From NCBI GenBank assembly GCA_035634215.1, contig DASQDJ010000257.1, positions 1 to 32,187 of the forward strand: a stretch of DNA of 32,187 bases. The letters are read 5' to 3'. This DNA comes from Solirubrobacterales bacterium (GTDB taxonomy: Bacteria > Actinomycetota > Thermoleophilia > Solirubrobacterales > 70-9). Positions within the stretch are counted from its first letter, which is position 1. The number at the start of each line of letters is the position of its first letter. Below, in pieces: positions 1,816-25,697 of this stretch. Both the position numbers and the translations under genes were made by a program. The notes under the pieces are model-generated. The model was not told the DNA's origin. It made no database searches and worked only from the letters and a program-made list of their open reading frames with translations.

Positions 1816-2002
1816 GGCGCCCCCCGGCCGACGCCGGCTCGCCGGACGCTCCACCGTCTCTCGCCGCGCGCAAATTGCGCGTCACGTGCGCGTCGCGATC
1901 TGTCAGCCTCCTCGTCGTGGCCGGCTATGCGCTACACCGATACGACATCAATCCGTCTCGGGCATCTGCCCGTCTCGACCACTGAACGTCCGAGGTTCCC
2001 AA

Positions 2003-4134: not shown

Positions 4135-4145
4135 AGGAGAGAACC

Positions 4146-4718
4146 GTGGCCGAGACCTACACCTACACCGAGACGTACACCTACACCCGCTCGGAGCTGA
4201 TCACCGACCTCATCGTCGGCGCCTTCGAGCACGTCCTTCGCCAGCTCGGCTCCACCTCGACGTTGCCGGCGGACGGCATCGAAGAGACGCTGAAGCTCGG
4301 CTGGCTGCGGCAGGTCTCGGTGGTGGCGAGCAGCAAGCGCGACGACGGCTCCTCGGACTGGCACATCGCCCTCACGGCGGAGATCGACGCGGAGACGCAC
4401 GTCGCCCGCCTCGCGGTCGCGGCCGAACGCACCATCGCCTTGCCGAAGGAGCGCGCCGACGACATCGCCGACCAACTCGCCTATTACGGCCAAATGTTCG
4501 TCAAAGTCGTCAAGCGCCACCGCCGCCCGAACTGGCGAATCGGCTGGTGGATCACGCCCACGAGCGCCGGCGCCGCGAACCGGCCTCGCTTCAACGAGCT
4601 GACCGGCACCCACCGGGCGACGACGCACCGGGCCAACCCTCAGAAACTCGGTCGCTTCAGTCCCGACGAGATCGACGAGGCCAGCTTCGGAATCGAGGTG
4701 TACGACGATGAGGTCTGA
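4146..4718 (+). CDS. Hypothetical protein, possible bacterial HORMA-domain (Cap7-like) protein
   Basis: High-GC3 ORF. SD AAGGAGA (4135-4141) precedes GTG 4146; an alternative GTG at 4131 overlaps the ATPase stop as GTGA. The N-terminus VAETYTYTETYTYTRSELITDLIVGAFEHVL resembles the (T/S)Y(S/T)YT...TY.T strand plus helix at the start of bacterial HORMA proteins as I remember them. The functional call is tentative. Confidence 0.6.
   Translation: MAETYTYTETYTYTRSELITDLIVGAFEHVLRQLGSTSTLPADGIEETLKLGWLRQVSVVASSKRDDGSSDWHIALTAEIDAETHVARLAVAAERTIALPKERADDIADQLAYYGQMFVKVVKRHRRPNWRIGWWITPTSAGAANRPRFNELTGTHRATTHRANPQKLGRFSPDEIDEASFGIEVYDDEV
4152..4187 (+). repeat. 18-bp in-frame tandem duplication (2 copies, 17/18 identical) encoding (ETYTYT)x2
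   Basis: GAGACCTACACCTACACC (4152-4169) followed directly by GAGACGTACACCTACACC (4170-4187). Confidence 0.95.
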
Positions 4719-5361
4719 GCGCGCTGCAGATCGATTCGAGTCGGGAGCGGTCGAGCCGACGCCGACCGTCAACCTGATCCTGCCCGACGGCTCCACCTGC
4801 TCGATTCCACTCGAGGAGCGCATCACTTCGTTCGGGCGGCATCCGCACAGCACCGTGGTGATCGACGATCCCACTGTGTCCTCGACCCATTTGACGTTGG
4901 AGAGGGTCGGCGGCCAGATCAAGGTGCGTGACGAGTCCTCGTACGGCACCCGGCTGCAGGGCGCCCTCCTCGTGTCGGAACGCTCGATCAAGGTCCACCA
5001 CGGGCAATCGATCACCTTTGGCGGCGACGACCAGGGTCGCTACCAGCTGGTGGTCCGCGATCCGTCCGAGCACGTGCCGACGGAGCCCCCTCGCCATCGA
5101 CCGGACCGCATTCGCCTTCCGGCTCCCCTGCAACGCATCGCGGAGGCGCTCGTGTACCAGTACGTCGAGCGAGTCGGGCCGGCGCCCCGGGCGGCGAGCG
5201 TCGAGGAGATCGCGGAGCGGCTGGAGGTCCATCCCGCGACGATCCGGCGGGGCCTTCACGACCTCGAGTCGATCCTCAAGATCGATGCCGATCTACGCGG
5301 CCCCAAGCGCCAGCAGGCCCTCGCCGAGCGCATCCTGCTGACCGACGCCCACCGATCGTAG
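4708..5361 (+). CDS. FHA-domain protein with C-terminal helix-turn-helix (putative phosphothreonine-dependent DNA-binding regulator)
   Basis: FHA signature: FGR...VVIDDPTVSSTHLTLERVGGQIKVRDESSYGTRLQG. C-terminal wHTH-like ASVEEIAERLEVHPATIRRGLHDLESIL. ATG 4708 overlaps the preceding gene by 11 nt. Confidence 0.85.
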   Translation: MRSERAADRFESGAVEPTPTVNLILPDGSTCSIPLEERITSFGRHPHSTVVIDDPTVSSTHLTLERVGGQIKVRDESSYGTRLQGALLVSERSIKVHHGQSITFGGDDQGRYQLVVRDPSEHVPTEPPRHRPDRIRLPAPLQRIAEALVYQYVERVGPAPRAASVEEIAERLEVHPATIRRGLHDLESILKIDADLRGPKRQQALAERILLTDAHRS

Positions 5362-9962: not shown

Positions 9963-10514
9963 ATGGCCGACAAGGGATTCACCCTCTGGTTCACCGGGCT
10001 CTCCGGGGCCGGCAAGACGACCATCTCCGGGATCCTGGAGAAGGAGCTGCGCGAGCGCGGCTCGAAGCTCGAGATCCTCGACGGCGACGTCGTGCGCGAA
10101 AACCTCTCCAAGGGGCTCGGCTTCTCCAAAGAGGACCGCGACACCAACGTGCGCCGCATCGCCTTCGTCGCCGACCTGCTCAGCCGCAACGGCGTGCCGG
10201 TGATCACCGCCGCGATCTCCCCCTACAAGGAGATTCGCGACGAGGCCCGCGAGACGATGGGCGACCGCTTCATCGAGGTGTACGTGAAGGCGTCGGTCGA
10301 CACCTGCGCCGACCGCGACGTCAAGGGCCTCTACAAGAAAGCCTTCGCCGGCGAGATCAAGGAATTCACCGGCGTCTCGGATCCCTACGAGGCCCCCGAG
10401 AACCCCGAGGTCGTCTGCGACACCGAAAGCGAAACCCCTGAGGAGTCGGCGCAGAAGCTGATTGCCTACCTCGAGCAGCGCGACCTGCTGCCGGCGGCAC
10501 CAGTAGCCGCTTAG
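9963..10514 (+). CDS. cysC: Adenylylsulfate (APS) kinase
   Basis: FTLWFTGLSGAGKTTI P-loop, LDGDVVR, and family-typical length of 183 aa. Confidence 0.95.
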   Translation: MADKGFTLWFTGLSGAGKTTISGILEKELRERGSKLEILDGDVVRENLSKGLGFSKEDRDTNVRRIAFVADLLSRNGVPVITAAISPYKEIRDEARETMGDRFIEVYVKASVDTCADRDVKGLYKKAFAGEIKEFTGVSDPYEAPENPEVVCDTESETPEESAQKLIAYLEQRDLLPAAPVAA

Positions 10515-10527
10515 ACCACGTCCCTGA

Positions 10528-10555
10528 CACGGCCAGGGCTCGAGCCCTGGCCGTG
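10528..10555 (+). terminator. Perfect 28-nt palindrome (12-bp stem, 4-nt loop) after cysC
   Basis: CACGGCCAGGGC tcga GCCCTGGCCGTG, 14 nt downstream of the cysC stop. No U-tract, which is common in high-GC actinobacteria. Confidence 0.6.
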
Positions 10556-10690
10556 ATCGCGCGCCCTGCGCGCCATTTGCTCCACGCACCGATTCGCGCG
10601 GGCGCCAATCCGAGCGCTGCCGATTTGCAGGCAAAATCGGCAATCCGCCGCCGCAAATCCAGGCCGTCGGTTTAAATACCGCAGGTTTTG

Positions 10691-10720
10691 TTGACTGGTA
10701 CGCGGTCGACCCCTTATTCC
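10691..10720 (+). promoter_or_regulatory. Candidate sigma-70-like promoter for the first small secreted paralog
   Basis: TTGACT-N18-TATTCC. A similar arrangement (TTGAAC-N17-TATCTC) lies upstream of the second paralog. Confidence 0.3.
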
Positions 10721-10787
10721 TCTTGACGCGCCCCAGGGGTGGGGCGTGGCGCTCACCAAGCGTCTACTTCAAGAGAAGGGAACCACG

Positions 10788-11441
10788 ATGAGCATGAAGC
10801 TCAAGGTCCTCGGTCTGGGGATCCTTGCCGTCATGGCAACGAGTGCGTTCACGGTGATGAACGCCTCGGCCCAAGATCAGCCAAACAGTCATTTCACGTC
10901 AGAGGCTGAACACGTAATCATCAAAGGGAAAGACGCTTTCGGCAGCGGACATTCCTTGCAATTCAAAGGATCGGGCGATCCGATCAGCTGCACAGACGCG
11001 ACGTATCACGGCACAATAGTCGAGTCGGACAAAACAACTCAGGCTATTCAGGTCAGGCCCCACTACACACAATGCGCCACAACGAGCGGCACCTGGGGCT
11101 CAGTAACCGTCCATGTCCCGACCGGCTGTGGGACAAACGTGTATGAATTCACAAGCGGTAATCCTGGCACAATTCACGTTAACTGCCAGATTACGATTAC
11201 ACATCCGAACTGCACCATCCGGGTGCCTGTTCAGACACGAAACGGCGCGACCTATACACAGGTCACCGAACAGGGCAAACACGCCATTACACTCCATGTA
11301 AACGCTCCTGAAATTACAACCCACTACGAGTCTGGCATCTGTGTCTTCTTGGGCACAAGCCACACCTCGACCATGACGGGCAACGCCACAGTCTGGGGTG
11401 AGAACCAAGCGGGAGGCCGAGTCGGCATCACAGCGACATAA
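10788..11441 (+). CDS. Small secreted six-cysteine protein, paralog 1 (unknown function)
   Basis: ATG 10788 follows GAGAAGGGAA. Signal peptide MSMKLKVLGLGILAVMATSAFTVMNASA. Six Cys conserved with the 18337..19005 paralog. Markedly lower GC and A/T-ending codons. Confidence 0.8.
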   Translation: MSMKLKVLGLGILAVMATSAFTVMNASAQDQPNSHFTSEAEHVIIKGKDAFGSGHSLQFKGSGDPISCTDATYHGTIVESDKTTQAIQVRPHYTQCATTSGTWGSVTVHVPTGCGTNVYEFTSGNPGTIHVNCQITITHPNCTIRVPVQTRNGATYTQVTEQGKHAITLHVNAPEITTHYESGICVFLGTSHTSTMTGNATVWGENQAGGRVGITAT

Positions 11442-11459
11442 GGGCATCTCTGAATGACG

Positions 11460-11495
11460 GCCGTCGGGCCCGGTCCTCAGATCGGGCCCGACGGC
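11460..11495 (+). terminator. Hairpin (perfect 12-bp stem, 12-nt loop) after paralog 1
   Basis: GCCGTCGGGCCC ggtcctcagatc GGGCCCGACGGC. Confidence 0.55.
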
Positions 11496-11497
11496 TA

Positions 11498-11526
11498 TTG
11501 ACGTTGAGAACATCAGGTGATACCGT
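11498..11526 (+). promoter_or_regulatory. Candidate promoter for the two giant secreted-protein genes
   Basis: TTGACG-N17-TACCGT immediately after the hairpin, about 70 nt upstream of ATG 11595. Confidence 0.3.
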
Positions 11527-11594
11527 GTCCATACTTTGGGGGTACCGATTGCGGCCGCTTCGCAGCGTCGCCGCTTTTAGGGAGGAAAAGGACG

Positions 11595-14500
11595 ATGGGA
11601 ACTTCCGCCAAGAGGGCGCTCCGGATCGGAACGATGGCGCTGGCGGTCGTCACGCTAGTCATCGCTCTGAGCAGCCCAGCCTCGGCGGCTGCGCCCGACC
11701 TTCTTTTGCGCGTCCCACAGGAGGACGGGCTACCAAAATTTGGCGGCGGTGCGGGGCAGACGAACAACCCCCGCGGTGTCGCTGGAAACCCGGCCACTGG
11801 TCACTTCTACGTCTCCGAGTTAGAAAACGCGCGCGTCAGCGAGTACACCGCCTGGGGTCTTTTCGTGCGGGCCTGGGGATGGAACGTAGCCCCCGACGGA
11901 ACTCCGGGCGACACGTCAAGCGACGAATTGGAGACGTGCGGCCCGCCTCAGCCGGAAGCAGAACCCTCCCCGGATCTTTGTCAAGCGGGGAATGCAGGCC
12001 CTGGTAAGGGCCAGCTCGACTGGCCGATGGGCCTCGCGGTCGACCCCAGCGGCGACGTCTACGTGTTTGAGTTCTTCAACCGACGCGTCCAGAAATTCAG
12101 CTCGTCGGGGGAGTTCCTGCTGATGTTCGGCGCCGACGTCAACCAGACCAAAGTTGGCGAAGGGGCCTCCGGAGCGCAACGGAACGTCTGCACGGACGCG
12201 TCCGGCGACACCTGTCAGGCGGGCACTTCCGGTGAAGGCACAAGTCAACTTGACGCGACCCTCGGCGATTACATCGACTACTCCCCGGCCGAAGGCGGAA
12301 CGATCCTGGTCGGAGACAAAGGCGGCATCCAGGTCTTCGATACCAACGGCATCCACAAAAAAACCATCCTCTTCTCGGGCGCGCTGTCTGCGCTGGCCGG
12401 CAAACAGGTCAATGGCCTCGACGTCGACAAAGACGCGAATATCTACATCACTCTCGACGCCACCGAAGACGTCTACAAGCTCTCACCGACTGGGGTGCCG
12501 CTCGACCCGGGCAAACCGGGCAGCTCGAGCTTCAAAGCGGAGGAGCCGCTTGGAGTCGCGGTGGATGTGGAGGGCAGCGTCTACGCGATTGACGATCCGG
12601 AAGGCTTCGTCGGAGCGCCCCCTTATGTCCTCAAATACAGCGCGGCGGGTGCGAAGCTGGTGCCGACAGCGGCAGAAGAAGGAGCCGGCACGCCGTTTCC
12701 GGAAAGGTCGTCGGGTGCGCGCCTTACCGCAATCGCGACGAACATCTGCTCGGGCAGCGAGGCACCCGGCAACCTCTACGTCGGCTTCTTCAACGCCGGC
12801 TCCCCGCCTCACGTCAGCTACGTCGACGCATACGGCACCGCTCCGATTGGCTGCGAATTGCCGCCGCCGAACCCGCCGGTAGTGGGCGAGCAGTTCGCGA
12901 CCTTCGTTGGGAGCGAAGAGGCGACGCTGCGGGCGCTGATCAACCCTTGGTTCTTCCCCGACACCACCTACTACGTCGAATATGGGGTCGCCCCGTGCTC
13001 GACGGGCGGTTGCACCAATAAAGCGCCCGTTCCGCCGGCACTCCTGACCCAGAGATCCGTCAAAGCCTTCGTCTCAACGGCCGACGTGATCCTTGAGGGC
13101 CTTGCACCCGGCACGACTTACCACTACCGCTTCGTCGCGGACAGCTCCGGTGGCGAGCAGGTGCACGGCATCGATCCGGACGGAGAGGGCCCGCTGAAAG
13201 CGGATCTTGAAAACGGCATGGAAGGAACCTTCAGGACCCCCGTCGCGGGTGAGCCGCCGGAACCATGCTCCAACGACCCCTTCCGCATCGGACCTGGCGC
13301 CGACCTTCCCGATTGCCGCGCCTACGAGATGGTCTCGCCCCTCGACAAAGGCAACGCCGACGTGGCACTTGGGATCGGCAGGAATAACGTCCGCTACCGA
13401 CTCTTCGAAGTGAACAAGAGCGCTTTGTCGGGCGAGCGGTTCACCTTTACCGCAGCCACGGCTTTCGGTGACGCGGAGAGCGCCGCATTCTCCTCTCAGT
13501 ACCTCGCGGAGCGAGACGGGGACGGCTGGACGAGCAAAGGAATTTCGCCGCCGCGCACCGAACCGGGGCTGCCGGTGGACCTGGTCTTTGGCGCCGAATT
13601 CCATGGCTTCAGCGAGGATCTGTGTCGCGGCTGGCTGCGCCTTTACTCGGTTGCGCCCCTGACGGTCGACGCGATCGAAAAGTTCCCCAACCTCTACAGG
13701 CGCGACAACTGTCTTCCATCGCCCAATTACACCGCGCTGACGACAAAAGAACCACCGAACCGATCGGCCGAGGAATACGACAGGCTGTTAATCGACGGCT
13801 TCTCGGCGGACGGAAGCCACGCAATTTTCACCGCCCCCGACACGCTCCATCCCGAAGCACCTACGCCGAAAGCCGGCGAGGAGGTTCTTTACGAGCATGT
13901 GCCGGGCGACCTGCGCTTCGTCTGCTACCTGCCGACTGGGGAGCCGAGCCCGGAAGCCTGCTCGGCGGGGACCAAGGCGGTGCCGGGCTCCTCGAACTTT
14001 TCGCCGTTGAAGAACGCGATCTCCGCTGACGGCTCGCGGATCTTCTGGACCGCCTATACGACCAATGAGATCAACGATAGCCAGCCCGGCCGCATCTTCG
14101 TGCGGATCGATGGACAGGAAACCGTCGCCATTTCGGATGCGGTGCCGTCTTCGGGCCGTGCTTTCTTCTGGACCGCTGCGGACGACGGCTCAAAGGCAAT
14201 TTTCTCGTTCGTCTCGGGTGATCGGAGCGGCGAGCTCTACGAGTTCGACGTCGACACCGAAACGCCGACGCTGATCGCCGAGGGGGTCGAGGGCCCGATG
14301 GGGGCGAGCGAGGACGCCTCGCGCCTCTACTTCGCCTCGACTGAGGACTTGGACGATGATGGCCCGGGCAGCGCCGGCGCCCACAACCTCTACTTCTACG
14401 AAGCTAATCCGGGTGGGGGGCCCGGGACCTATCAGTTCGTCATGGCGCTGGCAGATGCCGATGTCGGGTCGATGAATCCGAGCGCCCAGGGCGGGGCGAC

Positions 14501-15341
14501 GAGGCCGGTGGATCTTTTGCCGCCTATGCGCGCCGCTCGCGTCACCCCAGACGGGCTGCATGTCACCTTCATGTCGAAGGCGAGCCCGGCGCCAAGTGGA
14601 TACGACAACCGCGACATCGACAGCGGTCAAGCCGCCGCCGAGGTCTACCGATACGACGCCGCGGCCGGCGATCTTCATTGCGTCTCGTGCAACCCGACCG
14701 GGGCGAGGCCGGCCGCGGTTCTCGCTGAAGCCGTCATGACCGCCGCCCGCATCCAGGGCTGGGAAGCAAATCAACATGCTCCCAGGGTGATCACTGACGA
14801 CGGCTCGCGCGTCTTCTTCGAAAGCCACGAGGCGCTCGTCCCATCAGACTCCAACGGCACCTGGGACGTCTATCAGTGGGAGGAGCCCGGCAAAGGCACC
14901 TGCACCACCGCCACCCCCACCTACACCGACACGACCGGCGGCTGCGTGGACCTCCTCTCCTCCGGCCAGAGCGCCGCGCGCTCCCTGTTCCTGGACGCCG
15001 ACCCCTCCGGCAACAACGTCTTCCTCGCCACCCAGAGCTCCCTGGTCGGTCAGGACTACGGCCTGAACGACGTCTACGTCGCCCGCGTCGGCGGCGGCTT
15101 CCCCGAGCCCGTGCCGCCGGGCGATTGCGAAGGGGCCGCCTGCCAGGGCCCGGCGCCGGCGCCCCCGGTGAGGACGCCCGCCAGCGAGTCCTTCCAGGGC
15201 CCCGGCAACGAGACCGATAAACCGAAAGCCCGCAGATGCCCGAAAGGCAAGCGCCGCGTCACCCGCAAAGGCAAAGCGCGCTGCGTGAAGAAGCGCAAAG
15301 CCAGCAAACAGCGCAGCGGCCAGAGAGGGGGCCGGCGATGA
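11595..15341 (+). CDS. Large secreted multidomain protein: NHL-repeat beta-propeller, FN3-like domain, PD40/TolB-like repeats, basic Cys-containing C-terminal tail
   Basis: ATG 11595 follows GGGAGGAAAAGG. Signal peptide MGTSAKRALRIGTMALAVVTLVIALSSPASAAAP. NHL blades, e.g. GQLDWPMGLAVDPSGDVYVFEFFNRRVQKFSSSGEFLLMFG. FN3-like ATLRALINPWFFPDTTYYVEYG...LAPGTTYHYRFVA. PD40-like ISADGSRIFWTAY, TPDGLHVTFMS, TDDGSRVFFES...WDVYQW. Tail RRCPKGKRRVTRKGKARCVKKRKASKQRSGQRGGRR. Confidence 0.8.
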   Translation: MGTSAKRALRIGTMALAVVTLVIALSSPASAAAPDLLLRVPQEDGLPKFGGGAGQTNNPRGVAGNPATGHFYVSELENARVSEYTAWGLFVRAWGWNVAPDGTPGDTSSDELETCGPPQPEAEPSPDLCQAGNAGPGKGQLDWPMGLAVDPSGDVYVFEFFNRRVQKFSSSGEFLLMFGADVNQTKVGEGASGAQRNVCTDASGDTCQAGTSGEGTSQLDATLGDYIDYSPAEGGTILVGDKGGIQVFDTNGIHKKTILFSGALSALAGKQVNGLDVDKDANIYITLDATEDVYKLSPTGVPLDPGKPGSSSFKAEEPLGVAVDVEGSVYAIDDPEGFVGAPPYVLKYSAAGAKLVPTAAEEGAGTPFPERSSGARLTAIATNICSGSEAPGNLYVGFFNAGSPPHVSYVDAYGTAPIGCELPPPNPPVVGEQFATFVGSEEATLRALINPWFFPDTTYYVEYGVAPCSTGGCTNKAPVPPALLTQRSVKAFVSTADVILEGLAPGTTYHYRFVADSSGGEQVHGIDPDGEGPLKADLENGMEGTFRTPVAGEPPEPCSNDPFRIGPGADLPDCRAYEMVSPLDKGNADVALGIGRNNVRYRLFEVNKSALSGERFTFTAATAFGDAESAAFSSQYLAERDGDGWTSKGISPPRTEPGLPVDLVFGAEFHGFSEDLCRGWLRLYSVAPLTVDAIEKFPNLYRRDNCLPSPNYTALTTKEPPNRSAEEYDRLLIDGFSADGSHAIFTAPDTLHPEAPTPKAGEEVLYEHVPGDLRFVCYLPTGEPSPEACSAGTKAVPGSSNFSPLKNAISADGSRIFWTAYTTNEINDSQPGRIFVRIDGQETVAISDAVPSSGRAFFWTAADDGSKAIFSFVSGDRSGELYEFDVDTETPTLIAEGVEGPMGASEDASRLYFASTEDLDDDGPGSAGAHNLYFYEANPGGGPGTYQFVMALADADVGSMNPSAQGGATRPVDLLPPMRAARVTPDGLHVTFMSKASPAPSGYDNRDIDSGQAAAEVYRYDAAAGDLHCVSCNPTGARPAAVLAEAVMTAARIQGWEANQHAPRVITDDGSRVFFESHEALVPSDSNGTWDVYQWEEPGKGTCTTATPTYTDTTGGCVDLLSSGQSAARSLFLDADPSGNNVFLATQSSLVGQDYGLNDVYVARVGGGFPEPVPPGDCEGAACQGPAPAPPVRTPASESFQGPGNETDKPKARRCPKGKRRVTRKGKARCVKKRKASKQRSGQRGGRR

Positions 15342-18175
15342 GCCGCGCCCGCTCACTCGCCCTCGGCCTGCTCTCCCTGATGGCGTGCCTCGCCCTGGCG
15401 CCAGCGTCGGCCTCGGCTGACTTCGGCCTCTCAGACATCTCGGTCTCCTTCACCGAAGCCGACGGCTCGCAGGCCCGCAAAGCCGGCTCTCACCCCTTCC
15501 AGATGACGACCACCTTCAAGGTCAACACGGTCGAGCACCCCGACAAACCCGGCGTGCAGGTGGTAGACGGCGCCCTGCGCAACCTCGACGTCACCCTGCC
15601 GGCCGGCTTCGCGGGCAACCCGACCGCCGCGCCCAGGTGCGAGACGATCGACTTCCTCACCCTCGAGGTCCTCGTCCCCGCCTGCGCGGACGCCACCGCG
15701 GTCGGCACCCTGCGCGTGGAAGTCGGCGGCGCGACCGGCATAGTCGGCGAAGAAACCGTCCCCGTCTACAGCCTCCTGCCCTCCCCGGGCGTCGCCGCCA
15801 AGCTCGGCTTCTACGTCGCCGAGCTGCCGGTCACCATCGACATCAGCCCCGCCCAAACCTCCCCCTACAACGTCGTCGCCTCGCTTCGCAACACCTCCCA
15901 GATCGCCGAAGTGCTGGGCTCTGAATTCACGATCTGGGGCAACCCCTCTGACCCCCGCCACAACGCCGAGCGCGGCGAGTGCGTGCGCACCCCGGCCGCC
16001 GACCTCTGCCCCACCGACGCCCCCGCCAAACCGCTGATCACCCTGCCGCGCTCCTGCGAGGGTCCCCTGACGACGACATTCCACGCCGTCTCATGGTGGT
16101 CGGGGAGCCGCTTCGACCCCGGCCCGCCGGCGAGCTTCCACCACTCCGAGCAGACCCCCGGCATGATCGACTGCTCGGGGCTCGGCCTCTCGGCCGACCT
16201 GCAGGTTCGCCCGACCTCCGCCCAGGCCGAGTCGGCCTCGGGCCTTGAAGCCGACCTCCTGGTCACCGACGAGGACGTAAACGAGCCCTCCGGGCGCGTT
16301 GACTCCGACGTCTCCGCGGTGGTGGTCGAACTGCCCGAGGGCGTGACCGCCAACCCCTCCTTCGCCGCCGGGCTCGCCACCTGCTCCTCGGCGCAGCTGG
16401 CCGCAGAGACGCTCACCTCCGCGCCGGGGCAGGGCTGCCCGCTCGCCTCCAAGATCGGCACCGTCGAAGCAACCACCCCGATCCTCGAGGACACCGTCCT
16501 CAGGGGCGCCCTCTACATCGCCCCCCAGGACGACCCCGACTCCCCCGGTCAGGAGAACCCCTTCGACTCGCTGCTCGCCATGCACCTGGTCGTCAAGGAC
16601 CCGACCCTGGGCCTCCTGGTCCGCCAGTCGGGCCTGATCGAACCCAACCGCGCCACCGGGCAGCTGATCTCGATCTTCGACGAGCTGCCGCCCTTCCCGC
16701 TCGGCGAGGTCCGCCTGCGCCTCAGGGAGGGCGCCAGGAGCCCCCTGATCACCCCGCCTCGCTGCGGGCCCCACACCACCTTCTCTGAGCTCTTTCCCTC
16801 CGCGGACCCCGAAGAGCCGCTGGAGGTGCCCTCCACCTTCCAGATCACCTCAGGCGTCGGCGGAGGCCCCTGCCCGAGCGGGGCGCCCTTTGACCCCGGC
16901 TTCTCGGCCGGCACTGCCTTAAACAACGCCGGCTCCTTCTCGCCCTTCCACATGCGGCTGACCCGCCGAGACGCAGATCAGGACCTGACCCGCTTCGATG
17001 CGGTCCTGCCCCCCGGCGTGCTCGCCAAGCTGGCCGGGGTCTCCAAATGCCCCGACGCCGCGATCGCCGCCGCCAAGGCAAAGAGCGGCAAAGCCGAGCT
17101 CGCCCAGCCCTCCTGCCCGGCCAACTCGCGGATCGGCGGCGTCTGGGGGGGAGCGGGGGTCGGCACCGACCTCACCTACGTGCCCGGCTCGCTCTACCTG
17201 GCCGGCCCGGTCGGCAAAGCCCCCCTCTCTGTCGTCGGCGTCGTCCCCGCCGTCGCCGGCCCCTTCGACGTCGGCACCGTGGTCGTGCGCCAGGCGCTTC
17301 GGGTCAACCCCCGCAGCGCCACCGCGGAAGTCGACGGCGCCTCCTCAGACCCGATCCCCCACATCCTCGAAGGCATCCCGCTGAAGGTCAGAGACATCCG
17401 CGTCGACGTCGACCGGCCCGGCTTCACCCTGAACCCGACCAGCTGCGATGCCTCCCAGACCCTCGCCGACATCTGGGGTGGCGGGACCAACGTCTTCAGC
17501 CTCGCCGACGACTCCCCGGTGCGGCGCGCCTCGCGCTTCCAGGCCGCCAACTGCTCGCGGCTCGGCTTTGAGCCGCGCCTGGCCATCAAGCTGCGTGGCG
17601 GCACCAAGCGAGGCGCCCACCCGGCCCTCACCGCCACCTACAGGCCGAGGCCCGGCGACGCCAACCTCGCCTCGGTCGCCACCCGCCTGCCCCGCTCGGC
17701 CTTCCTCGACCAAGCCCACATCCGCACGATCTGCACCCGCGTTCAGTTCGCCGCCGACGCCTGCCCGGCCGCATCGATCTACGGCACCGCGACGGCGACC
17801 ACGCCGCTGCTGGACGAGCCCCTCTCAGGCCCCGTCTACCTCAGATCCTCCGACAACGAGCTGCCCGACATGGTCCTCGACCTGCACGGCATCGTCGACG
17901 TCGAGGTCTCAGCCCGCATCGACTCGGTAAAGGGCGGCATCAGGGCCTCCTTCACCGACGCCCCCGACGCGCCGGTCACCGAGGTCGTCCTGCGGATGCA
18001 GGGCGGCAAGAAGGGACTCGTCGTCAACAGCACGAACCTCTGCGCGAGGCGCAACCGCGCGCGGGTCGTGCTGGGGGCACAGAGCGGGAAGAGCCTCAGG
18101 CTGCGGCCGGTGGTGCGGCCGAGCGGGTGCAAAGGTCGGGGCGGGAAGGGCCGCAAAGGCGGCAAAGGCCGCTAG
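15338..18175 (+). CDS. Large secreted protein of unknown function with basic Gly/Lys/Arg C-terminal tail
   Basis: ATG 15338 overlaps the upstream stop (ATGA). Signal peptide MSRARSLALGLLSLMACLALAPASASA. 945 aa with no domain I can name. Ends in RPSGCKGRGGKGRKGGKGR. Confidence 0.75.
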   Translation: MSRARSLALGLLSLMACLALAPASASADFGLSDISVSFTEADGSQARKAGSHPFQMTTTFKVNTVEHPDKPGVQVVDGALRNLDVTLPAGFAGNPTAAPRCETIDFLTLEVLVPACADATAVGTLRVEVGGATGIVGEETVPVYSLLPSPGVAAKLGFYVAELPVTIDISPAQTSPYNVVASLRNTSQIAEVLGSEFTIWGNPSDPRHNAERGECVRTPAADLCPTDAPAKPLITLPRSCEGPLTTTFHAVSWWSGSRFDPGPPASFHHSEQTPGMIDCSGLGLSADLQVRPTSAQAESASGLEADLLVTDEDVNEPSGRVDSDVSAVVVELPEGVTANPSFAAGLATCSSAQLAAETLTSAPGQGCPLASKIGTVEATTPILEDTVLRGALYIAPQDDPDSPGQENPFDSLLAMHLVVKDPTLGLLVRQSGLIEPNRATGQLISIFDELPPFPLGEVRLRLREGARSPLITPPRCGPHTTFSELFPSADPEEPLEVPSTFQITSGVGGGPCPSGAPFDPGFSAGTALNNAGSFSPFHMRLTRRDADQDLTRFDAVLPPGVLAKLAGVSKCPDAAIAAAKAKSGKAELAQPSCPANSRIGGVWGGAGVGTDLTYVPGSLYLAGPVGKAPLSVVGVVPAVAGPFDVGTVVVRQALRVNPRSATAEVDGASSDPIPHILEGIPLKVRDIRVDVDRPGFTLNPTSCDASQTLADIWGGGTNVFSLADDSPVRRASRFQAANCSRLGFEPRLAIKLRGGTKRGAHPALTATYRPRPGDANLASVATRLPRSAFLDQAHIRTICTRVQFAADACPAASIYGTATATTPLLDEPLSGPVYLRSSDNELPDMVLDLHGIVDVEVSARIDSVKGGIRASFTDAPDAPVTEVVLRMQGGKKGLVVNSTNLCARRNRARVVLGAQSGKSLRLRPVVRPSGCKGRGGKGRKGGKGR

Positions 18176-18183
18176 CCGAAGGC

Positions 18184-18209
18184 CCGCGCGCGCCGTTCTG
18201 CGCGCGCGG
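18184..18209 (+). terminator. GC-only hairpin (10-bp stem, 6-nt loop) after the second giant gene
   Basis: CCGCGCGCGC cgttct GCGCGCGCGG, 9 nt after the stop. Confidence 0.55.
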
Positions 18210-18272
18210 CCGATCCTCCCACCTGCTTTGCGGGCCTTTCCGGAGCCTTAACCGAGAACCAAGCGTTTTCGC

Positions 18273-18301
18273 TTGAACACAGAGATCCTCGGGCGTATCT
18301 C
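18273..18301 (+). promoter_or_regulatory. Candidate promoter for the second small secreted paralog
   Basis: TTGAAC-N17-TATCTC. RBS GGGAAGGGGAG lies before ATG 18337. Confidence 0.3.
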
Positions 18302-18336
18302 CCCCGCACCCGCGCAAACTAGGGAAGGGGAGCAAG

Positions 18337-19005
18337 ATGAGCCTGAAGCTGAAGGTCTTCAGCCTGGGCGTCCTCGCCGTTGTGGCGGCGAGCGCTTTGG
18401 CGGTGGTGAATGCTGGGGCGGTGACGCCACCCGGGAGTCATTTCCTGTCTCACTCGGCGGAGCATCACCTCGTCATCAAAGGGACAGATGGCTTCGGAAC
18501 TGGTCACGCCATGAAGTTCCGCGGGGAATCGGGAGAAGCCATTACCTGCACACACTCGACGTACCACGGCACACTGACTGGGTCGGCTGCCACAACAACC
18601 CAAGCTTTCCAGGTCAGACCCCACTACACAAAATGCGCTACAGAAGGCGGCAGCTGGGGTTCGGTAACCATACATGTGCCGGCCGCGTGTGGAACAAACG
18701 TGATCGAATTCACAAGCGGCAATCCGGGCACAGTCCACGTCAATTGTCAGATTACGATCACACATCCCAATTGCACGATTCGCGTACCCGTGCAGACATC
18801 ATCGGGAGCCACGTATACACCGTTTGCTGAAAGCAATGCGTCAGCCTTGACAATTGACGTCTCCGGCCAGGAAGAACTCACAAGTCACTACGAGGCCGGG
18901 ATCTGCGTCTTTCTAGGTACAGCTCATAAGCACAAATTGGAAGGCCAGGCTACATTCTGGGGTGAGCACACATCAGGTAGCCGAGTGGGCATCACACACA
19001 CATAA
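18337..19005 (+). CDS. Small secreted six-cysteine protein, paralog 2 (unknown function)
   Basis: Signal peptide MSLKLKVFSLGVLAVVAASALAVVNAGA. Roughly 60% identical by eye to 10788..11441, with an almost invariant core EFTSGNPGT(I/V)HVNCQITITHPNCTIRVPVQT. Lower GC than its surroundings. Confidence 0.8.
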   Translation: MSLKLKVFSLGVLAVVAASALAVVNAGAVTPPGSHFLSHSAEHHLVIKGTDGFGTGHAMKFRGESGEAITCTHSTYHGTLTGSAATTTQAFQVRPHYTKCATEGGSWGSVTIHVPAACGTNVIEFTSGNPGTVHVNCQITITHPNCTIRVPVQTSSGATYTPFAESNASALTIDVSGQEELTSHYEAGICVFLGTAHKHKLEGQATFWGEHTSGSRVGITHT

Positions 19006-19021
19006 TCCAAGAGATAAGTGA

Positions 19022-19828
19022 CTACGGCCTGGCCGGCACCCGCGGCTCGGCCAGGCCGTAGGTCTCGTAGGCGCCGAACGTCGCGAAGGTCTTGTGCGTG
19101 GGGCCGTGGTAGTCGGAGGACGCGGTAGGGACAAGCCCCCGCTCGTCGCACAGGGCCAGCAGGTGCTCCGTCTGGTCCTTGGAGTGGGTCGGGTAGAAGG
19201 CCTCGACGCCGTCGACCGGCAGGGCGCGGATCAGCTCCTCGACCTTGGCCGGCTCGGAGATGTCCCAGTAGGGATGGGCGACGACCGGGACGCCGGCGGC
19301 CTCCCTAATCACCTCGACAGCCTGCTCGGCGGTCGGCCAGCGGCGTGGCACGAACGCCTTGGCGCCCGGCACTAGATACTCCTCGAAGAAAGGCCCGAGG
19401 TCGCCGCTCGCCCCCGCGGCCCGGGCGATGTGCGGTCGCCCGATTGAGAGGGCGTCGCCCGCCTCGCGAACAGCGTCGTCGATCGTCAGCTCGAAGCCCT
19501 CGCGGCGCAGGTTCTCGATGATCTCTTCGGCGCGCGCGACCCGTTCGCGCTGCGCCCGCTCGCAGGCCGGCGCAATCCGCTCCAAATCGACCCAGTAGCC
19601 GCAGACGTGCAGGTCTTCGGCGTACTCGTGCACGCACGACATCTCGATCGCCGGCACCAGCTCGACGCCAAGCCGCGCCGCCGCCTCCGCCGCCTCCTCG
19701 ACGCCGGCGATCGCGTCGTGGTCGGTCAGGGCCAGCGTGGTGACACCGGCCTCGTAGGCTTCGGCGACCACCGCGGCGGGCGCCAGTTGGCCGTCGGAGA
19801 CGGTCGAGTGGCTCTGCAGCTCGATCAT
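19022..19828 (-). CDS. PHP-domain metal-dependent phosphoesterase (TrpH/YciV-like)
   Basis: MIELQSHSTVSDGQLAPAAVVAEAYEAGVTTLALTDHDAIAGV and a later AHPYW...SDYHG; typical PHP histidine/aspartate motifs. Confidence 0.8.
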   Translation of the reverse strand: MIELQSHSTVSDGQLAPAAVVAEAYEAGVTTLALTDHDAIAGVEEAAEAAARLGVELVPAIEMSCVHEYAEDLHVCGYWVDLERIAPACERAQRERVARAEEIIENLRREGFELTIDDAVREAGDALSIGRPHIARAAGASGDLGPFFEEYLVPGAKAFVPRRWPTAEQAVEVIREAAGVPVVAHPYWDISEPAKVEELIRALPVDGVEAFYPTHSKDQTEHLLALCDERGLVPTASSDYHGPTHKTFATFGAYETYGLAEPRVPARP

Positions 19829-21681: not shown

Positions 21682-21767
21682 GGACCGGTAGTCCCTCGAA
21701 CGGGCGGATACTCAAAACGCCGGCCTAATTATGCCGGCGTTTGTCCGGGCGAGGGACTACCGGTCCC
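21681..21767. terminator. Nested inverted repeats between convergent genes (probable bidirectional terminator)
   Basis: Outer perfect 18-bp arms GGGACCGGTAGTCCCTCG (21681-21698) / CGAGGGACTACCGGTCCC (21750-21767). Inner perfect 10-bp stem AAACGCCGGC (21715-21724) / GCCGGCGTTT (21733-21742) with an 8-nt AT-rich loop. Confidence 0.6.
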
Positions 21768-23635
21768 TACCTACCCCGTTCCCGTTCGCGCCGCGCTTTT
21801 TCGCGCTCGCGTTCCCGTTCGCGCACTTCGCGCTGTTTCTGCGCCTGCAGCCGCTGGAACTCGACTCGGGTCAGCGGCAGTTTGGGCGTGACTTCGCTAC
21901 AGACCGAGCCCGTGCAGTCGATCAGCCGCTTCATCTGCCGGTGCAGGAAGTTGCGGATCGGGAAGAAGTTCGGGACCTTGTGCAGCGAGTTGAGCTCGTG
22001 GGGGTCGCGGTTGATGTTGTAGAGCTCCTTCTCGCCGGTCGGCCAGGCGATGTACTTGTAGGGGCCGAGCCTGATGCCCGCGTAGTCCTTGGGCGGCGCC
22101 AGCAGCGAGGCGGTCGCCTTCGGCCCGCTCGCCGACGCCCTCGCCCCGCTCGCGGAGGAGTGCCTCGCGCCGGACGCGCCCGCTGCCTCGGCGCCCTCTT
22201 CGGGCACCGCCCCGCCGGCTTCGACGTCGCTCGTCTCGACGAAGGACTCGAAGAGGATCGGACGGCGGCTGCGAAGTTCGGGGTCTTCCATGTACGGGAC
22301 TAGCGAGCGCCCGTCGATGCTCTTGGTGGCCGTCGCCCCTGCCAGCTGCAGGAGGGTGGGCGCGATGTCGATGTTGGCCACCAGCTCGCCGGTCGAGCTG
22401 TCCGGTTTGATCCCCGGGCCCCGGATCAGGAACGGCATGTGGGTGGCCGGCTCGTAGGCGAGGAACTTGCCGCCCAGCAGGCGGTGCTCGCCGAAGAAGA
22501 AGCCGTTGTCGGAGGTGAAGAGGACGTAGGTGTTGCGCAGCCGGCCCATCGCGCCGAGCGTGTCGATGATCCGTTTGACGCCGTCGTCGACCCCGCGCAG
22601 CGACTCCAGCTGCTTTTGCCAGTAGACGCGGTAGGTGCGCTTCTCGTTCGGCGTCAGGTGCGGCGCGTCGCGGATGAAGCGCGGCTTGTCGGTCACGTTG
22701 CCCTCGTCCAGCCCCTCGGAGCGATTGTGCGGCAGCTGGTCGCCGCGGAACCAGTCGTAGTGGCGCGGCGCCGGCTCCGGCCCGGCCGGCCGGCGGAAGT
22801 CGCCGTGCGGGGCGGTGTAGTCGAGCTGGACGAAGAAGGGCTGTTCGGCCGGGGTCGCGAACATCTCGTTGCTGGCGATTTCGGTCAGCTTGTCGGTCGC
22901 GTAATTGCAGGGGAGCCCGTTGGCCGGCGCGAAGGGGCAGCCGAAGTCGTCGCGGACCGTGTATTCGCGCGATTCCCAGGAGCCCGGGTCGCCGACCGGC
23001 CCGAGGATCTGGCCGTTCACGTTCAGCTTGTAGCCGTAGTAGTAGTGCGTGGTGTCGGATTCCGGAATCGAGTACCAGGCGCTCCAGCCAGGCGCGACCT
23101 CCAGCCCGGTGCTGTACGGCTCGTCGCCGTAGCCGTTGAGGAACTTGCCGACGTGGATGGTGCGGTAGCCCGCCGCCTGCAGCCAGACCGCGAGGTTGTG
23201 CTGCATCGCGCCGCGGAAGCTGAAGCCCAGGAAGCCGCCGTTGGGCTGGACGTTCCCCTTCACGTTGTGGCTGTGCGCGTAGCGGCCGGTCAGCAGGCTC
23301 ACCCGCGACGGGCAGCAGAGGGGGTAAGGCACGTAGTAGCGGTTGAACGTCATGCCTTTCTTGGCGATCAGGTCGAGCGTGTTGGGCATCGCCCGCGTCT
23401 CGCCCGCCCCCGGGAAGGTCTGGAACGTCGCGTAGAGGCTGTCCAGCGTCTGGTCGTCGGTCTGGATGACGACGAAGCTGGGGGCTTCGCCGGCCGTGCG
23501 CGGCGGCGGGATCGGGCCGGCGGCGCTGCGCGCCGGAGCCAGCCAGAGGCAGAGCGCGCAGAGCAGGGCCAGCAGCCCCGCGACGATCGGGAGCCGCGCG
23601 GACGCTGACGTGCGGATGTCGCTCGTTGGGCGCAT
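21767..23635 (-). CDS. Secreted sulfatase (formylglycine-dependent, arylsulfatase family)
   Basis: Signal-like N-terminus. CxPSR motif LCCPSRVSLLTGRY. Sulfatase core (FTSDNGFFFGEH). Unusual charged tail QKQREVREREREREKARRERERGR. Confidence 0.85.
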   Translation of the reverse strand: MRPTSDIRTSASARLPIVAGLLALLCALCLWLAPARSAAGPIPPPRTAGEAPSFVVIQTDDQTLDSLYATFQTFPGAGETRAMPNTLDLIAKKGMTFNRYYVPYPLCCPSRVSLLTGRYAHSHNVKGNVQPNGGFLGFSFRGAMQHNLAVWLQAAGYRTIHVGKFLNGYGDEPYSTGLEVAPGWSAWYSIPESDTTHYYYGYKLNVNGQILGPVGDPGSWESREYTVRDDFGCPFAPANGLPCNYATDKLTEIASNEMFATPAEQPFFVQLDYTAPHGDFRRPAGPEPAPRHYDWFRGDQLPHNRSEGLDEGNVTDKPRFIRDAPHLTPNEKRTYRVYWQKQLESLRGVDDGVKRIIDTLGAMGRLRNTYVLFTSDNGFFFGEHRLLGGKFLAYEPATHMPFLIRGPGIKPDSSTGELVANIDIAPTLLQLAGATATKSIDGRSLVPYMEDPELRSRRPILFESFVETSDVEAGGAVPEEGAEAAGASGARHSSASGARASASGPKATASLLAPPKDYAGIRLGPYKYIAWPTGEKELYNINRDPHELNSLHKVPNFFPIRNFLHRQMKRLIDCTGSVCSEVTPKLPLTRVEFQRLQAQKQREVREREREREKARRERERGR

Positions 23636-23725
23636 CTAGAAAGTTGCCGGGCCTGCCAGCCGGTTCGGCCTGCTCAAAAGACCAACCCTCACCGGCCTGC
23701 TGAGTTGCGAAACGCTAGAGAACGA

Positions 23726-24421
23726 CTAGGACGCGCCGAGCTTTTTCGCCGCGTCGCGGAAGTTTTTCACCGTCGCGGCGGGGGCTTTGCGCCCTTCGAG
23801 TTTCTCGTTGTGCCGGTTGACCCAGATCACCGGCACGTTCATTTTCAGCAGCGGCGCCACGTCCGTCGTGTAGCTGGAGCCGATGTGGACCCAGCCTTTC
23901 TTGCTGCCGATCCGGCGCGCGCACTCTTTGAAGTGGGTCGGGTCCGGCTTGTAGCTGCGCACCTGCTGGGCGGTGACGACGAGGTCGAGTTCGGTCCGCA
24001 GGTGGCGGCGGGAGATCCCCAGCAGCTTGTCGTCGATGTTGGAGACGATCCCGATCTCGTAGCGTTTTCCGAGCCGGTCCATCGCCGCGTTCGCCTCGCG
24101 GAAGGGCAGCCAGTAGGCGACGCTGTCGGGCAGGAACTGGGCCCGCGAAGGCTCGATCTCCCAGCCCACCTCGCGCGCCACGTTGACGATCGTGCGGCGC
24201 AGCACCTCGGCGTAGAGTTCGTAGGAGCCGGCCATGATTTCGGCCTGCACTTCGAAGAAGCGCTCCATGAAGGGCCCCTCCTCGAAGCTGAAGCCGTCCT
24301 TCTCCGCCTCTTTCCGGCAGGCCTCGAGGATCCCCTTCTCCCAATCGATCAGGGTGCCGTAGCAATCGGCGGTCACCCATTTGATGGTTTTGAGGGCTGG
24401 AAGGGGCATCGGGCGCGGCAT
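23726..24421 (-). CDS. HAD-superfamily hydrolase (2-haloacid dehalogenase-like subfamily)
   Basis: Motif I TADCYGTLIDWE; later VSNID and KPDPTHF. Start placed at ATG 24421 (MPRPMPLPALKTIKW); the longer track ORF N-terminus is Arg-rich and implausible. Confidence 0.75.
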   Translation of the reverse strand: MPRPMPLPALKTIKWVTADCYGTLIDWEKGILEACRKEAEKDGFSFEEGPFMERFFEVQAEIMAGSYELYAEVLRRTIVNVAREVGWEIEPSRAQFLPDSVAYWLPFREANAAMDRLGKRYEIGIVSNIDDKLLGISRRHLRTELDLVVTAQQVRSYKPDPTHFKECARRIGSKKGWVHIGSSYTTDVAPLLKMNVPVIWVNRHNEKLEGRKAPAATVKNFRDAAKKLGAS

Positions 24422-24533
24422 CTTATGGGAAGCGGCCCGCGGCGAGCCTCGTCGCCGTTCCCCTGCCGCGGAGCCCGCCCCGCAGCCGGTTGGATAGGCT
24501 GCCCGCCGCGCTCGGCAGGAGCGCCGATTCCAC

Positions 24534-25697
24534 ATGGACCTCCTCGAGTACCAGGGCAAGCAGCTGTTCGCCGCGCACGGAATCGCCGTGCCAAGCGGCG
24601 AGGTCGCGAAGACCGTGGACGAGGCCGTCGCGGCGGCGGAGCGGATCGGCTACCCCTGCGCGATCAAGGCCCAGGTCCTGATCGGCGGGCGTGGCAAGGC
24701 CGGCGGAATCAAGATCGCCGCCGACGCCGAGGAGGCGCGCGCGCATGCCGACGCGATCCTCGGAATGGACATCGTCGGGCCGCATGGCGAGGGCCCGTTC
24801 CGGGTCGACCAGGTCTGGATCGAGGGCGGCTCGGACATCGCCGAGGAGTACTACGCCTCGATCATCCTCGACCGCGGCGAGAAGAAGCTGCTGGCGATGG
24901 TCTCGGCGAAAGGCGGCATGGACATCGAGGCGGTCGCCGCCGAGGACCCCAAAGCTCTGGTCAAGCGCCACATCGACCCGACCCGCGAGTTCGACGCCGC
25001 GACGGCGCGCTCGATCGTCGCCGACGCCGGTCTGGCCGAGGACGCGCTCGACCAGGCCGCCGCCGTGCTGGTGAAGCTGGCCGAGGTGGCGCGCGAGGAG
25101 GACGCGACCCTGATCGAGGTCAACCCGCTGATCGTCACCGCCGACCGCGACGTCGTCGCCCTCGACTCCAAGGTGACGATCGACGGCAACGCCCTCTTCC
25201 GCCACCAGGACCTGGCCGAGATCGCCGACACCGTCGACGATCCGCAGGAGCAGATGGCGAAGGAGAAGGGCCTCACCTACGTCAAGCTCGACGGCAACGT
25301 CGGGATCCTCGCCAACGGCGCCGGCCTCTGCATGTCGACGCTCGACGTCGTCGCGCAGGCGGGCGGCGCTCCGGCCAACTTCCTCGACGCCGGCGGCGGC
25401 TCGAAAGCCGAGGCGATCGTCGACGCGCTGACCGTGATCTCCTCCGACCAGAAGGTCACCGCGATCCTCTTCAACATCTTCGGCGGGATCACCCGCTGCG
25501 ACGAGATCGCCAAGGGCATCGTCGAGGCATCCGGCCAGCTCGACCTCGGCGTGCCGCTGGTCGTGCGGCTCGACGGGACGAACTCCGAGGAGGGGCTGGC
25601 GATCCTTGCCGAGGCCGACCTGCCCAACCTGCACCAGGAGAAGACGATGCTGGGCGCCGCGAAGCGCGTCGTCGAGCTGGCGGAGGCGAGTGGCTGA
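24534..25697 (+). CDS. sucC: Succinyl-CoA synthetase beta subunit
   Basis: MDLLEYQGKQLFAAHGIAVP, ATP-grasp domain, GNVGILANGAGLCMSTLD. Confidence 0.95.
   Translation: MDLLEYQGKQLFAAHGIAVPSGEVAKTVDEAVAAAERIGYPCAIKAQVLIGGRGKAGGIKIAADAEEARAHADAILGMDIVGPHGEGPFRVDQVWIEGGSDIAEEYYASIILDRGEKKLLAMVSAKGGMDIEAVAAEDPKALVKRHIDPTREFDAATARSIVADAGLAEDALDQAAAVLVKLAEVAREEDATLIEVNPLIVTADRDVVALDSKVTIDGNALFRHQDLAEIADTVDDPQEQMAKEKGLTYVKLDGNVGILANGAGLCMSTLDVVAQAGGAPANFLDAGGGSKAEAIVDALTVISSDQKVTAILFNIFGGITRCDEIAKGIVEASGQLDLGVPLVVRLDGTNSEEGLAILAEADLPNLHQEKTMLGAAKRVVELAEASG

Follow-up and report, generated by a model that had tools for sequence, protein, structure and literature searches.

The stretch of DNA considered here, called the window, comprises 32,187 nt from a Solirubrobacterales bacterium. 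Between cysC and a convergent gene for a PHP-domain protein, the window carries a block of about 8.5 kb with four genes on the same strand, named here small A, big1, big2 and small B. This block is one copy of a lineage-specific, many-copy cassette of secreted proteins that is found almost only in soil Solirubrobacterales. The original prediction had placed the four genes as listed below and had assigned an N-terminal signal peptide to each of them; the open reading frames (ORFs) and the hydrophobic segments are indeed present. The features of the block and of its two edges are the following.

9963-10514, plus strand: cysC, left neighbour of the block.
10526-10573, plus strand: terminator-like hairpins 3′ of cysC (-39.3 kcal/mol, z-score -4.7), at the left edge of the variable block.
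10691-10720, plus strand: putative promoter-like element 5′ of small A (TTGACT, 17-18 nt, TATTCC).
10788-11441, plus strand: small A, 217 amino acids (aa), secreted, all-beta.
11459-11496, plus strand: hairpin 3′ of small A (-42.8 kcal/mol, z-score -5.85), separating small A from big1.
11595-15341, plus strand: big1, 1248 aa, secreted.
15111-15338, plus strand: C-terminal tail of big1, with CEGxxC, a proline-rich linker and then RRCPKGKRRVTRKGKARCVKKRK, a polycationic disulfide-loop motif.
15338-15341, plus strand: ATGA stop/start overlap of big1 and big2, translational coupling.
15338-18175, plus strand: big2, 945 aa, secreted.
18178-18240, plus strand: weak GC-rich hairpin 3′ of big2 (-32.6 kcal/mol, z-score -2.3).
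18273-18301, plus strand: putative promoter-like element 5′ of small B (TTGAAC, 17 nt, TATCTC).
18337-19005, plus strand: small B, 222 aa, paralog of small A.
19022-19059, no strand assigned: hairpin at the right edge of the block, 3′ of small B (-37.7 kcal/mol, z-score -5.3).
19022-19828, minus strand: PHP-domain gene, convergent, right neighbour of the block.

Copies of the cassette were counted through big2 in a scan of one genome per species, and the counts are lower bounds. At least 587 big2 loci were found, nearly all in metagenome-assembled genomes (MAGs) of Solirubrobacterales. One contig of 2.84 Mb (CAVYPC010000002.1) holds at least eight cassette copies, and several other assemblies, including complete chromosomes of 2.5-2.9 Mb, hold three to five. 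The same order dominates the protein searches: the big1 core has 3021 homologs, of which almost all with a stated source belong to Solirubrobacterales, and the 757 big2 homologs among the scored candidates come, where a source is stated, from Solirubrobacterales MAGs, several of them lying on single contigs. Two cassette loci occur on short contigs binned to other phyla, in a Candidatus Dormiibacterota MAG (L038) and in a Gemmatimonadales MAG (L061). For these, mis-binning is more likely than true spread of the cassette.

The organization of the cassette was compared over 80 related loci, labelled L001 and so on. In every locus with enough flanking sequence, big1 immediately precedes big2 on the same strand, and 67 of the 74 junctions show a 4-nt overlap, ATGA or GTGA. 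The coupling proposed from the ATGA of the window is a common property of the family, and the neighbourhood comparison bears out that the genes travel together. The symmetric order small-large-large-small, which had been given a central place, does recur in at least 12 loci of different genomes (for example L002/L007, L079, L062, L006, L028 and L032), but it is not what defines the unit. The invariant core is the translationally coupled big1-big2 pair. Small genes stand beside this pair in 32 of the 80 loci, nearly always co-oriented with it, upstream of big1, downstream of big2 or on both sides, and number one to five. A collagen-like protein is encoded by the adjacent gene instead in about 27-39 loci. 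This partner has a conserved N-terminal hydrophobic anchor or signal (MLSPLRNRFGIPGVISVIALVFAM.GGAYAA), a run of 7-26 G-X-Y triplets (Pfam Collagen, up to 1e-14) and a C-terminal head of about 150 aa ending in GTWAVTA(P/EEE). Its gene is found upstream of big1 in L008, L020, L024-L027, L036, L037, L050, L053 and L077, and downstream of big2 in L082 (10887-11603 of that locus, minus strand). No relationship between the collagen-like head and the small family was detected by profile comparison with hhalign. As a partner, the pair can have from one to five small genes, a fusion of several small domains, an unrelated collagen-like protein, or nothing detectable. Tandem duplications of the big1-big2 pair occur in L015, L022, L026, L034, L039 and L064.

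The big1 protein begins with a signal peptide (residues 1-31), followed by an NHL beta-propeller region (about 32-420), an FN3-like domain (about 421-555), a conserved core (about 556-1172) and, from 1173 to 1248, a proline-rich linker with a cationic Cys-loop tail. Among the domains first proposed for it, the NHL propeller is firmly established, by a Pfam match (3e-7) and by profile matches to NHL domains of the PDB (TRIM71, Thin, PknD; up to 4e-40) over five to seven stretches. The region of about 32-420 is an NHL-repeat propeller, an assignment that covers this single domain and not the whole system. The FN3-like domain and the PD40-like repeats are weakly supported, the latter by a weak SGL match and by PF07676 as precomputed in a few homologs; the core, aa 556-1172, is probably a propeller of PD40-like type, on this same weak support. 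When the big1 profile was compared with PDB sequences, the NHL part only was matched. Conservation along big1 is rather flat, with a peak at aa 1001-1172, towards the C-terminal end of the core. With the window protein as the tblastn query across cassettes, often only aa of about 427-1248 align; in those cassettes, the N-terminal NHL part has diverged past detection or is absent.

The tail of big1 differs in charge from the rest of the protein. The body is very acidic (isoelectric point of 4.4, net charge -79) and the tail carries a charge of +17. In homologs, the tail is built of CEGxxC, a proline-rich linker and RRCxKGxRRVxRxGKxRCxKK; C1178, C1183 and C1215 are invariant and C1230 nearly so. 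The motif is kept in the big1 of L082, which by tblastn is only 28% identical to that of the window, and over the last 50 aa the median net charge of 50 homologs is +20. A similar arrangement is found in big2, with a body of charge -28 and a Cys-loop tail of +15, made of a cationic C-terminal loop (C902...C931) and of KGRGGKGRKGGKGR. The tail charges of the two proteins are conserved over 50-57 homologs.

For big2, the original prediction had recognised no domain. This holds at the level of sequence families, as neither Pfam, NCBIfam nor the PDB profile search gave any meaningful match. An AlphaFold2 model (pLDDT 86, pTM 0.75) shows a chain of Ig-like beta-sandwich domains. Foldseek matches this model best to the Ig-like domains of Enterococcus PrgB and to streptococcal antigen I/II C-domains (8beg_B, E 3e-11; 4tsh, 6e3f, 4z23 and 4ofq, probability 0.97-1.0), and also to integrin alpha legs, to Saf and CFA/I pilins and to MG domains. 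According to the model, big2 is an adhesin-like rod of Ig-like domains, the matches being generic folds of adhesin stalks. It has 18 invariant Cys, and its conservation climbs steadily from the N-terminus to the C-terminal half. Low-probability matches to TEP1, A2ML1 and C3 are of the generic beta-sandwich kind. With these generic matches only, and with no thioester CxEQ motif in any of the four proteins, an alpha-2-macroglobulin or TEP-like identity was ruled out.

How the four proteins would be held at the cell was examined by motif and family searches. In each of them, the only hydrophobic segment is the N-terminal one, with an AxA-type site behind it, and the four signal peptides are of the signal peptidase I AxA type. 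As had been claimed, no sortase or LPXTG signal exists in the block: the last 60 residues of the four proteins contain neither an LPXTG-like motif nor a hydrophobic segment, regular-expression searches of the four for a pilin motif (YPKN) and an E-box were negative, and no sortase family is represented among the window genes scanned. No SLH or other S-layer or cell-wall-binding domain was matched in Pfam or NCBIfam at E <= 0.1. The first 40 residues of the four proteins hold no lipobox ([LVI][ASTVI][GAS]C), the signal-peptide consensus of big2 has no conserved Cys, and a search for a class III signal peptide as in type IV pilins (G|F/M-T-L-x-E) was negative. Lipoprotein, type IV pilin and LPXTG models were ruled out by these searches. 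Collagen-type G-X-Y repeats are absent from the four window proteins. No family match for them was obtained in PHROGs or PADLOC, tblastn against plasmid and phage records gave no match, and a literature search returned no relevant publication.

The lack of a covalent anchor signal would suit soluble secreted complexes, either enzymes or binding and scavenging devices, in which each cassette would have its own substrate, bound or processed by the big1 propellers. Propellers of the NHL and PD40 types often serve as scaffolds for ligand binding or catalysis, and the N-terminal part of big1 is its least conserved part across cassettes. However, Pfam and NCBIfam show no catalytic domain in any component, and strictly conserved polycationic tails on very acidic proteins are hard to explain for soluble complexes. 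The fibril-type architecture also points to a cell-associated structure, and the N-terminal hydrophobic segment of the collagen-like partner could be a membrane anchor as well as a cleaved signal peptide. We regard a soluble system as clearly unlikely.

The same tails lend themselves to another interpretation, namely an S-layer or coat. Here, big1 and big2 would form a lattice canopy that their basic tails attach to the wall, accessory or stalk roles would fall to the small or collagen-like proteins, and the paralogs would serve coat variation. Chains of Ig-like domains make up archaeal S-layer proteins, in Sulfolobales SlaA forms the canopy and SlaB the stalk, and Campylobacter fetus has 8-9 sap paralogs; the Ig-like build of big2, the acidic bodies with basic tails resembling wall-binding regions in both large proteins, the coupling of two genes and the many paralogs per genome would fit this scheme. 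Against it, neither SLH nor another known S-layer anchoring domain is present, big1 and the small genes do not show the codon choice of very highly expressed genes, and at least eight full-length, highly divergent and independently promoted cassettes in a genome would be unusual for S-layers. Such a coat is accordingly given a small probability only.

The two small genes are paralogous, as had been proposed, with 63% identity between their products (BLASTP E 8e-94). The description of these products as Cys-rich must be corrected to six invariant or nearly invariant Cys in about 190 mature residues. Small A has a signal peptide of 28 residues, the six conserved Cys and 17% Thr. Its AlphaFold2 model (pLDDT 88.6) is an all-beta domain with long strands, for which Foldseek gave no significant match (best E 0.1 in the PDB and 0.02 in BFVD), the likeness to lectins being very weak and non-significant. 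Neither Pfam nor NCBIfam has a family for the small proteins, a PDB sequence search with the small-family profile gave nothing meaningful, and hhalign showed no relationship to big2. The small family, big2, the big1 core and the cationic Cys-loop tails have no annotated family or solved relative. An exhaustive search with a hidden Markov model collected 2623 clusters of the small family at 50% identity, 1059 of them with E <= 1e-10; where a source is stated, almost all come from Solirubrobacterales. The domain also occurs in fusions of two, three or four domains behind a single signal peptide, which suggest an ability to assemble into bead-like arrays.

The most conserved segment of the small proteins is the signal peptide (0.77, vs 0.51-0.68 for the mature part), with the pattern MS.KLKVLGLGLLAVMATSAFAV.NASA (residues 1-28; window 10788-10871 and 18337-18420). 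Since the codons of small A and small B differ synonymously over this segment, the constraint acts on the peptide and not on the DNA. It may reflect a dedicated route of export or processing, or an anchor that is retained. A 5′ cassette conserved at the DNA level, as used for recombinational switching, was ruled out by the same synonymous differences. Small paralogs of one cassette are mutual nearest relatives, with 49-89% identity within and 30-56% between cassettes; this pattern indicates that the paralogs evolve in concert or that they co-evolve with their cognate big pair.

It may also be imagined that the small proteins are secreted effectors, toxins or lectin-like bacteriocins, with big1 and big2 as a delivery, receptor or immunity scaffold, the whole forming a module of interbacterial competition or kin recognition. 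They diversify fastest, are specific to their cassette and form tandem arrays with as many as five genes; the high conservation of their signal peptide is shared with some variable secreted families, and the faint resemblance to lectins would point the same way. Yet no toxin, immunity or PADLOC family is matched, the multi-domain fusions look stalk-like, and the collagen-like protein that replaces the small proteins in sister cassettes is structural, not toxic. A role in competition therefore seems distinctly improbable.

The base composition of the block was also considered. Windowed GC and GC at third codon positions (GC3) agree with the rise that had been noticed across the block, with the small genes lowest and big2 near background: GC is 0.58-0.61 over the small genes vs about 0.70 in the background, and GC3 is 0.63 in small A, 0.79 in big1, 0.92 in big2 and 0.61 in small B. 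The reference was eleven neighbouring genes with well-supported reading frames, the full range of which is 0.82-0.96; the genes for sulfate assimilation, PHP, acyl-CoA carboxylase (ACC), sulfatase, DtxR and HAD proteins are at 0.92-0.96. The deviation lies at synonymous sites, and the gradient is real, exceeding the local spread by far. Its reading as a sign of acquisition does not stand. GC3 of the small genes is low in every genome examined, with medians of 0.63 (58 small genes), 0.82 (big1) and 0.84 (big2), and because it is low in all of them it gives no sign of recent transfer; it is a property of the family and not a scar. GC3 tracks the evolutionary rate, the small genes evolving fastest, followed by big1 and then big2. 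Identities between the window cassette and those of L001 and L079 are 54-56% for the small proteins, 65-68% for big1 and 75-76% for big2; for the VEQ41 MAG, they are 74% for big1 and 93% for big2. One plausible explanation of the low GC3 would be that GC-biased gene conversion, or selection, works less strongly at loci whose divergence prevents recombination with alleles of the same species; alternatively, an AT-binding silencer might target these genes. With its fall in GC3 throughout the family, the fastest-evolving part of the cassette is a clean natural example in which to study how high-GC genomes maintain their GC3.

The site occupied by the block was compared among relatives found with the PHP protein, after mapping of the flanking genes. 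The context ACC–PHP…cysC–sat–cysH–sulfite reductase is kept at 78-97% identity and the PHP–cysC interval varies. In L101 the interval is empty (60 nt with a single bidirectional terminator), in L147, L145 and L126 it is short (150-220 nt), and in L087, L095, L098, L119 and L149 it spans 1-3 kb with short NHL-only ORFs and no big2; these ORFs could be remnants or independent NHL genes. The closest relative, L082, has flanks with 96% (cysC), 97% (sat) and 89% (PHP) identity and a different cassette in between, with big1 at 28% and big2 at 37% identity to the window and a collagen-like partner. The cassettes nearest to that of the window, in L001 and L079, sit elsewhere, between an FeS-assembly gene and fxsA. 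As had been stated, integrase and tRNA genes are lacking in the block; transposase genes and flanking repeats were not found there either, the only repeats being the paralogous small genes. Because relatives show an empty, short or differently filled interval and none of these elements is present, the cysC–PHP interval behaves, as judged from the sequences, as a replacement hot spot within a conserved housekeeping context. Exchange by recombination in the conserved flanks would be the simplest mechanism. A composite transposon and an integrase-mediated island were ruled out by the same absence of integrase, tRNA and further repeats.

These observations also bear on the idea of a recently acquired island, in which the four genes would be cargo of a mobile element from a donor of lower GC, the composition being a scar and the genes having no joint function. 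The low GC and GC3, the empty cysC–PHP sites and the position of the nearest cassette relatives at another genomic site had made it worth considering, as had a TrwC relaxase gene near the L001 cassette. In contrast, the GC3 of big2 (0.92) is that of the host, homologs come nearly all from one order, and neither mobility genes, a tRNA target or flanking repeats nor plasmid, phage or PHROGs matches were obtained. Family-wide low GC3 and linkage conserved down to 4-nt overlaps largely refute this idea, which we consider very improbable indeed. Just upstream of the L001 cassette, genes for a TrwC-type relaxase and helix-turn-helix proteins are located at 1-2614 and 4268-4722 of L001; the hot spot of that cassette may also serve an integrative or conjugative element.

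Concerning transcription, a hairpin and a promoter-like region had been proposed for each small gene. Strong hairpins do follow small A, with arms of 16 nt that are 94% complementary, and small B, where the hairpin overlaps the 3′ end of the convergent PHP gene. The promoter proposal fared less simply: a strict scan with the sigma-70 consensus matched no promoter in the block, but TTGAC/TTGAA-N17-TATnnn elements are conserved in orthologous loci. TTGAC...TATnnn is kept in register 5′ of the upstream small gene in L001, L079 and L002, and the region upstream of small B shares a CTTAACCGAGA.CCAAGCGTTT.CGCTTGAAC...GGGCGTAT block with that of the downstream small gene in L079. Because of the strong hairpins and of these conserved elements, three transcription units are suggested, small A, big1-big2 and small B. 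Besides, a TTTGC(A/G)GG motif at 10615-10640 and 18227-18245 of the window lies about 70 nt (small A) and about 40 nt (small B) upstream of the promoter-like elements; it is conserved in the upstream regions of L001, L002 and L079 and could be a regulator-binding site. An Rfam search of the block gave no match.

Taking these data together, we tentatively favour, with somewhat less than even confidence, the view that the cassette encodes a heteromeric, envelope-tethered, variable surface fibril or adhesin with fast-evolving partner subunits. In such a model, big1 and big2 would form an equimolar complex, tethered non-covalently by its cationic tails to anionic polymers of the envelope or to the membrane, with the variable N-terminal ends facing outwards. 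The separately transcribed, fastest-evolving small proteins would be cognate partner subunits that bind or extend this scaffold, a role that the collagen-like fibril protein would fill in sister cassettes. Genomes would hold several divergent cassettes, swapped as wholes at hot spots between conserved housekeeping genes, and the repertoire would diversify surface specificities for adhesion, ligand binding or evasion of phages and predators.

Several observations weigh against this proposal. The four proteins have no recognised anchoring signal (LPXTG, SLH, lipobox or transmembrane segment), and for this reason retention at the cell would depend on the cationic tails alone. About 20 loci, a quarter or so, have only the big1-big2 pair, with no partner gene within 6 kb, and the partner may thus be dispensable. 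Finally, the low GC3 of the small genes speaks against highly expressed major subunits in a high-GC organism.

A wider version of the surface-fibril proposal would see here an unrecognised modular and exchangeable surface-recognition system of soil Actinomycetota. The big1-big2 scaffold, tethered by polycationic Cys loops, would display collagen-like fibrils or cassette-specific, rapidly diversifying partners of new fold; with at least eight alternative cassettes in a genome of about 2.5-3 Mb, swapped whole at hot spots, the system would serve the recognition of kin or partners or the evasion of phages and predators, and the conserved signal peptides of the partners would reflect dedicated export or processing. 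In this full form, the idea is unlikely. Solirubrobacterales are abundant soil bacteria, mostly uncultured, and their small genomes (about 2.5-3 Mb) spend several percent of their coding capacity on cassette copies. If the cassettes do encode variable surface fibres, they would define attachment, partner recognition or phage escape in this order, and a sortase-independent display of large proteins would be added to those of the actinobacterial envelope.

Among known systems, those nearest to the cassette in how they work would be the fibrillar adhesins of Gram-positive bacteria, pili or collagen-like surface hairs. PrgB and antigen I/II, to which the big2 model is best matched, are Sec-secreted, elongated, multi-domain proteins, as big2 would be according to its model and signal peptide. 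Unlike them, the cassette has no LPXTG or sortase signal and no sequence homology to these adhesins; big2 has its 18 invariant Cys instead of isopeptide bonds, is obligately paired with a propeller protein through overlapping genes and ends in a polycationic Cys loop. Sortase-assembled pilus operons likewise have a small subunit gene, expressed separately (as predicted here), beside large adhesin-like genes, and the weak matches of big2 to Saf and CFA/I pilins recall pilus systems. However, the sortase signal, pilin motif and E-box of sortase pili are missing, no sortase is found among the window genes scanned, and the small protein has no pilin-like fold match. The collagen-like protein of sister cassettes, with a probable anchor at its N-terminus and a globular head at its C-terminus, has the layout of Bacillus exosporium BclA and is comparable to streptococcal Scl1/2. 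The window itself has no collagen-like gene, in contrast to these systems, and no homology was detected between the collagen-like head and known heads or the small family. To our knowledge, BclA and Scl have no link to a big1/big2 pair.

Two further comparisons concern variation. Campylobacter fetus sap and Sulfolobales SlaA/SlaB share with the cassette several divergent paralog loci per genome, Ig-like blocks and a canopy-plus-partner logic, and basic wall-binding regions, to which the cassette tails can be likened, are found in Lactobacillus S-layer proteins. The differences are that the cassette has no SLH or known anchoring domain and that no invertible promoter or conserved 5′ DNA cassette is seen at the window block. 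As with pneumococcal cps between dexB and aliA, the content of the locus varies between conserved flanks, which are 80-97% identical in close relatives. Here, however, proteins and not polysaccharide synthesis are encoded, a genome holds many such loci, and the way in which replacement would occur is a proposal.

The remainder of the window has a housekeeping character next to the block. Upstream lie the genes for sulfite reductase, phosphoadenosine phosphosulfate reductase, ATP sulfurylase and adenosine phosphosulfate kinase, and downstream the PHP gene is followed by that for acyl-CoA carboxylase. Farther upstream, a 580-aa protein with RTX calcium-binding nonapeptide repeats (73-1815; Pfam 1e-22) precedes a cluster of genes for a Ser/Thr kinase, an AAA ATPase and an FHA-domain protein (1886-5361). 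The sole tRNA gene of the window, tRNA-Pro (GGG) at 23444-23529, overlaps the 5′ end of a long sulfatase ORF (21767-23635, minus strand), the true start of which is probably internal. The adjacent 954-aa ORF (23705-26569) has GC of 0.83 at first and 0.64 at third codon positions, and the Pfam CoA-ligase matches only its residues 672-946; most of it is probably a wrong reading frame, and other genes likely occupy 23.7-25.7 kb.

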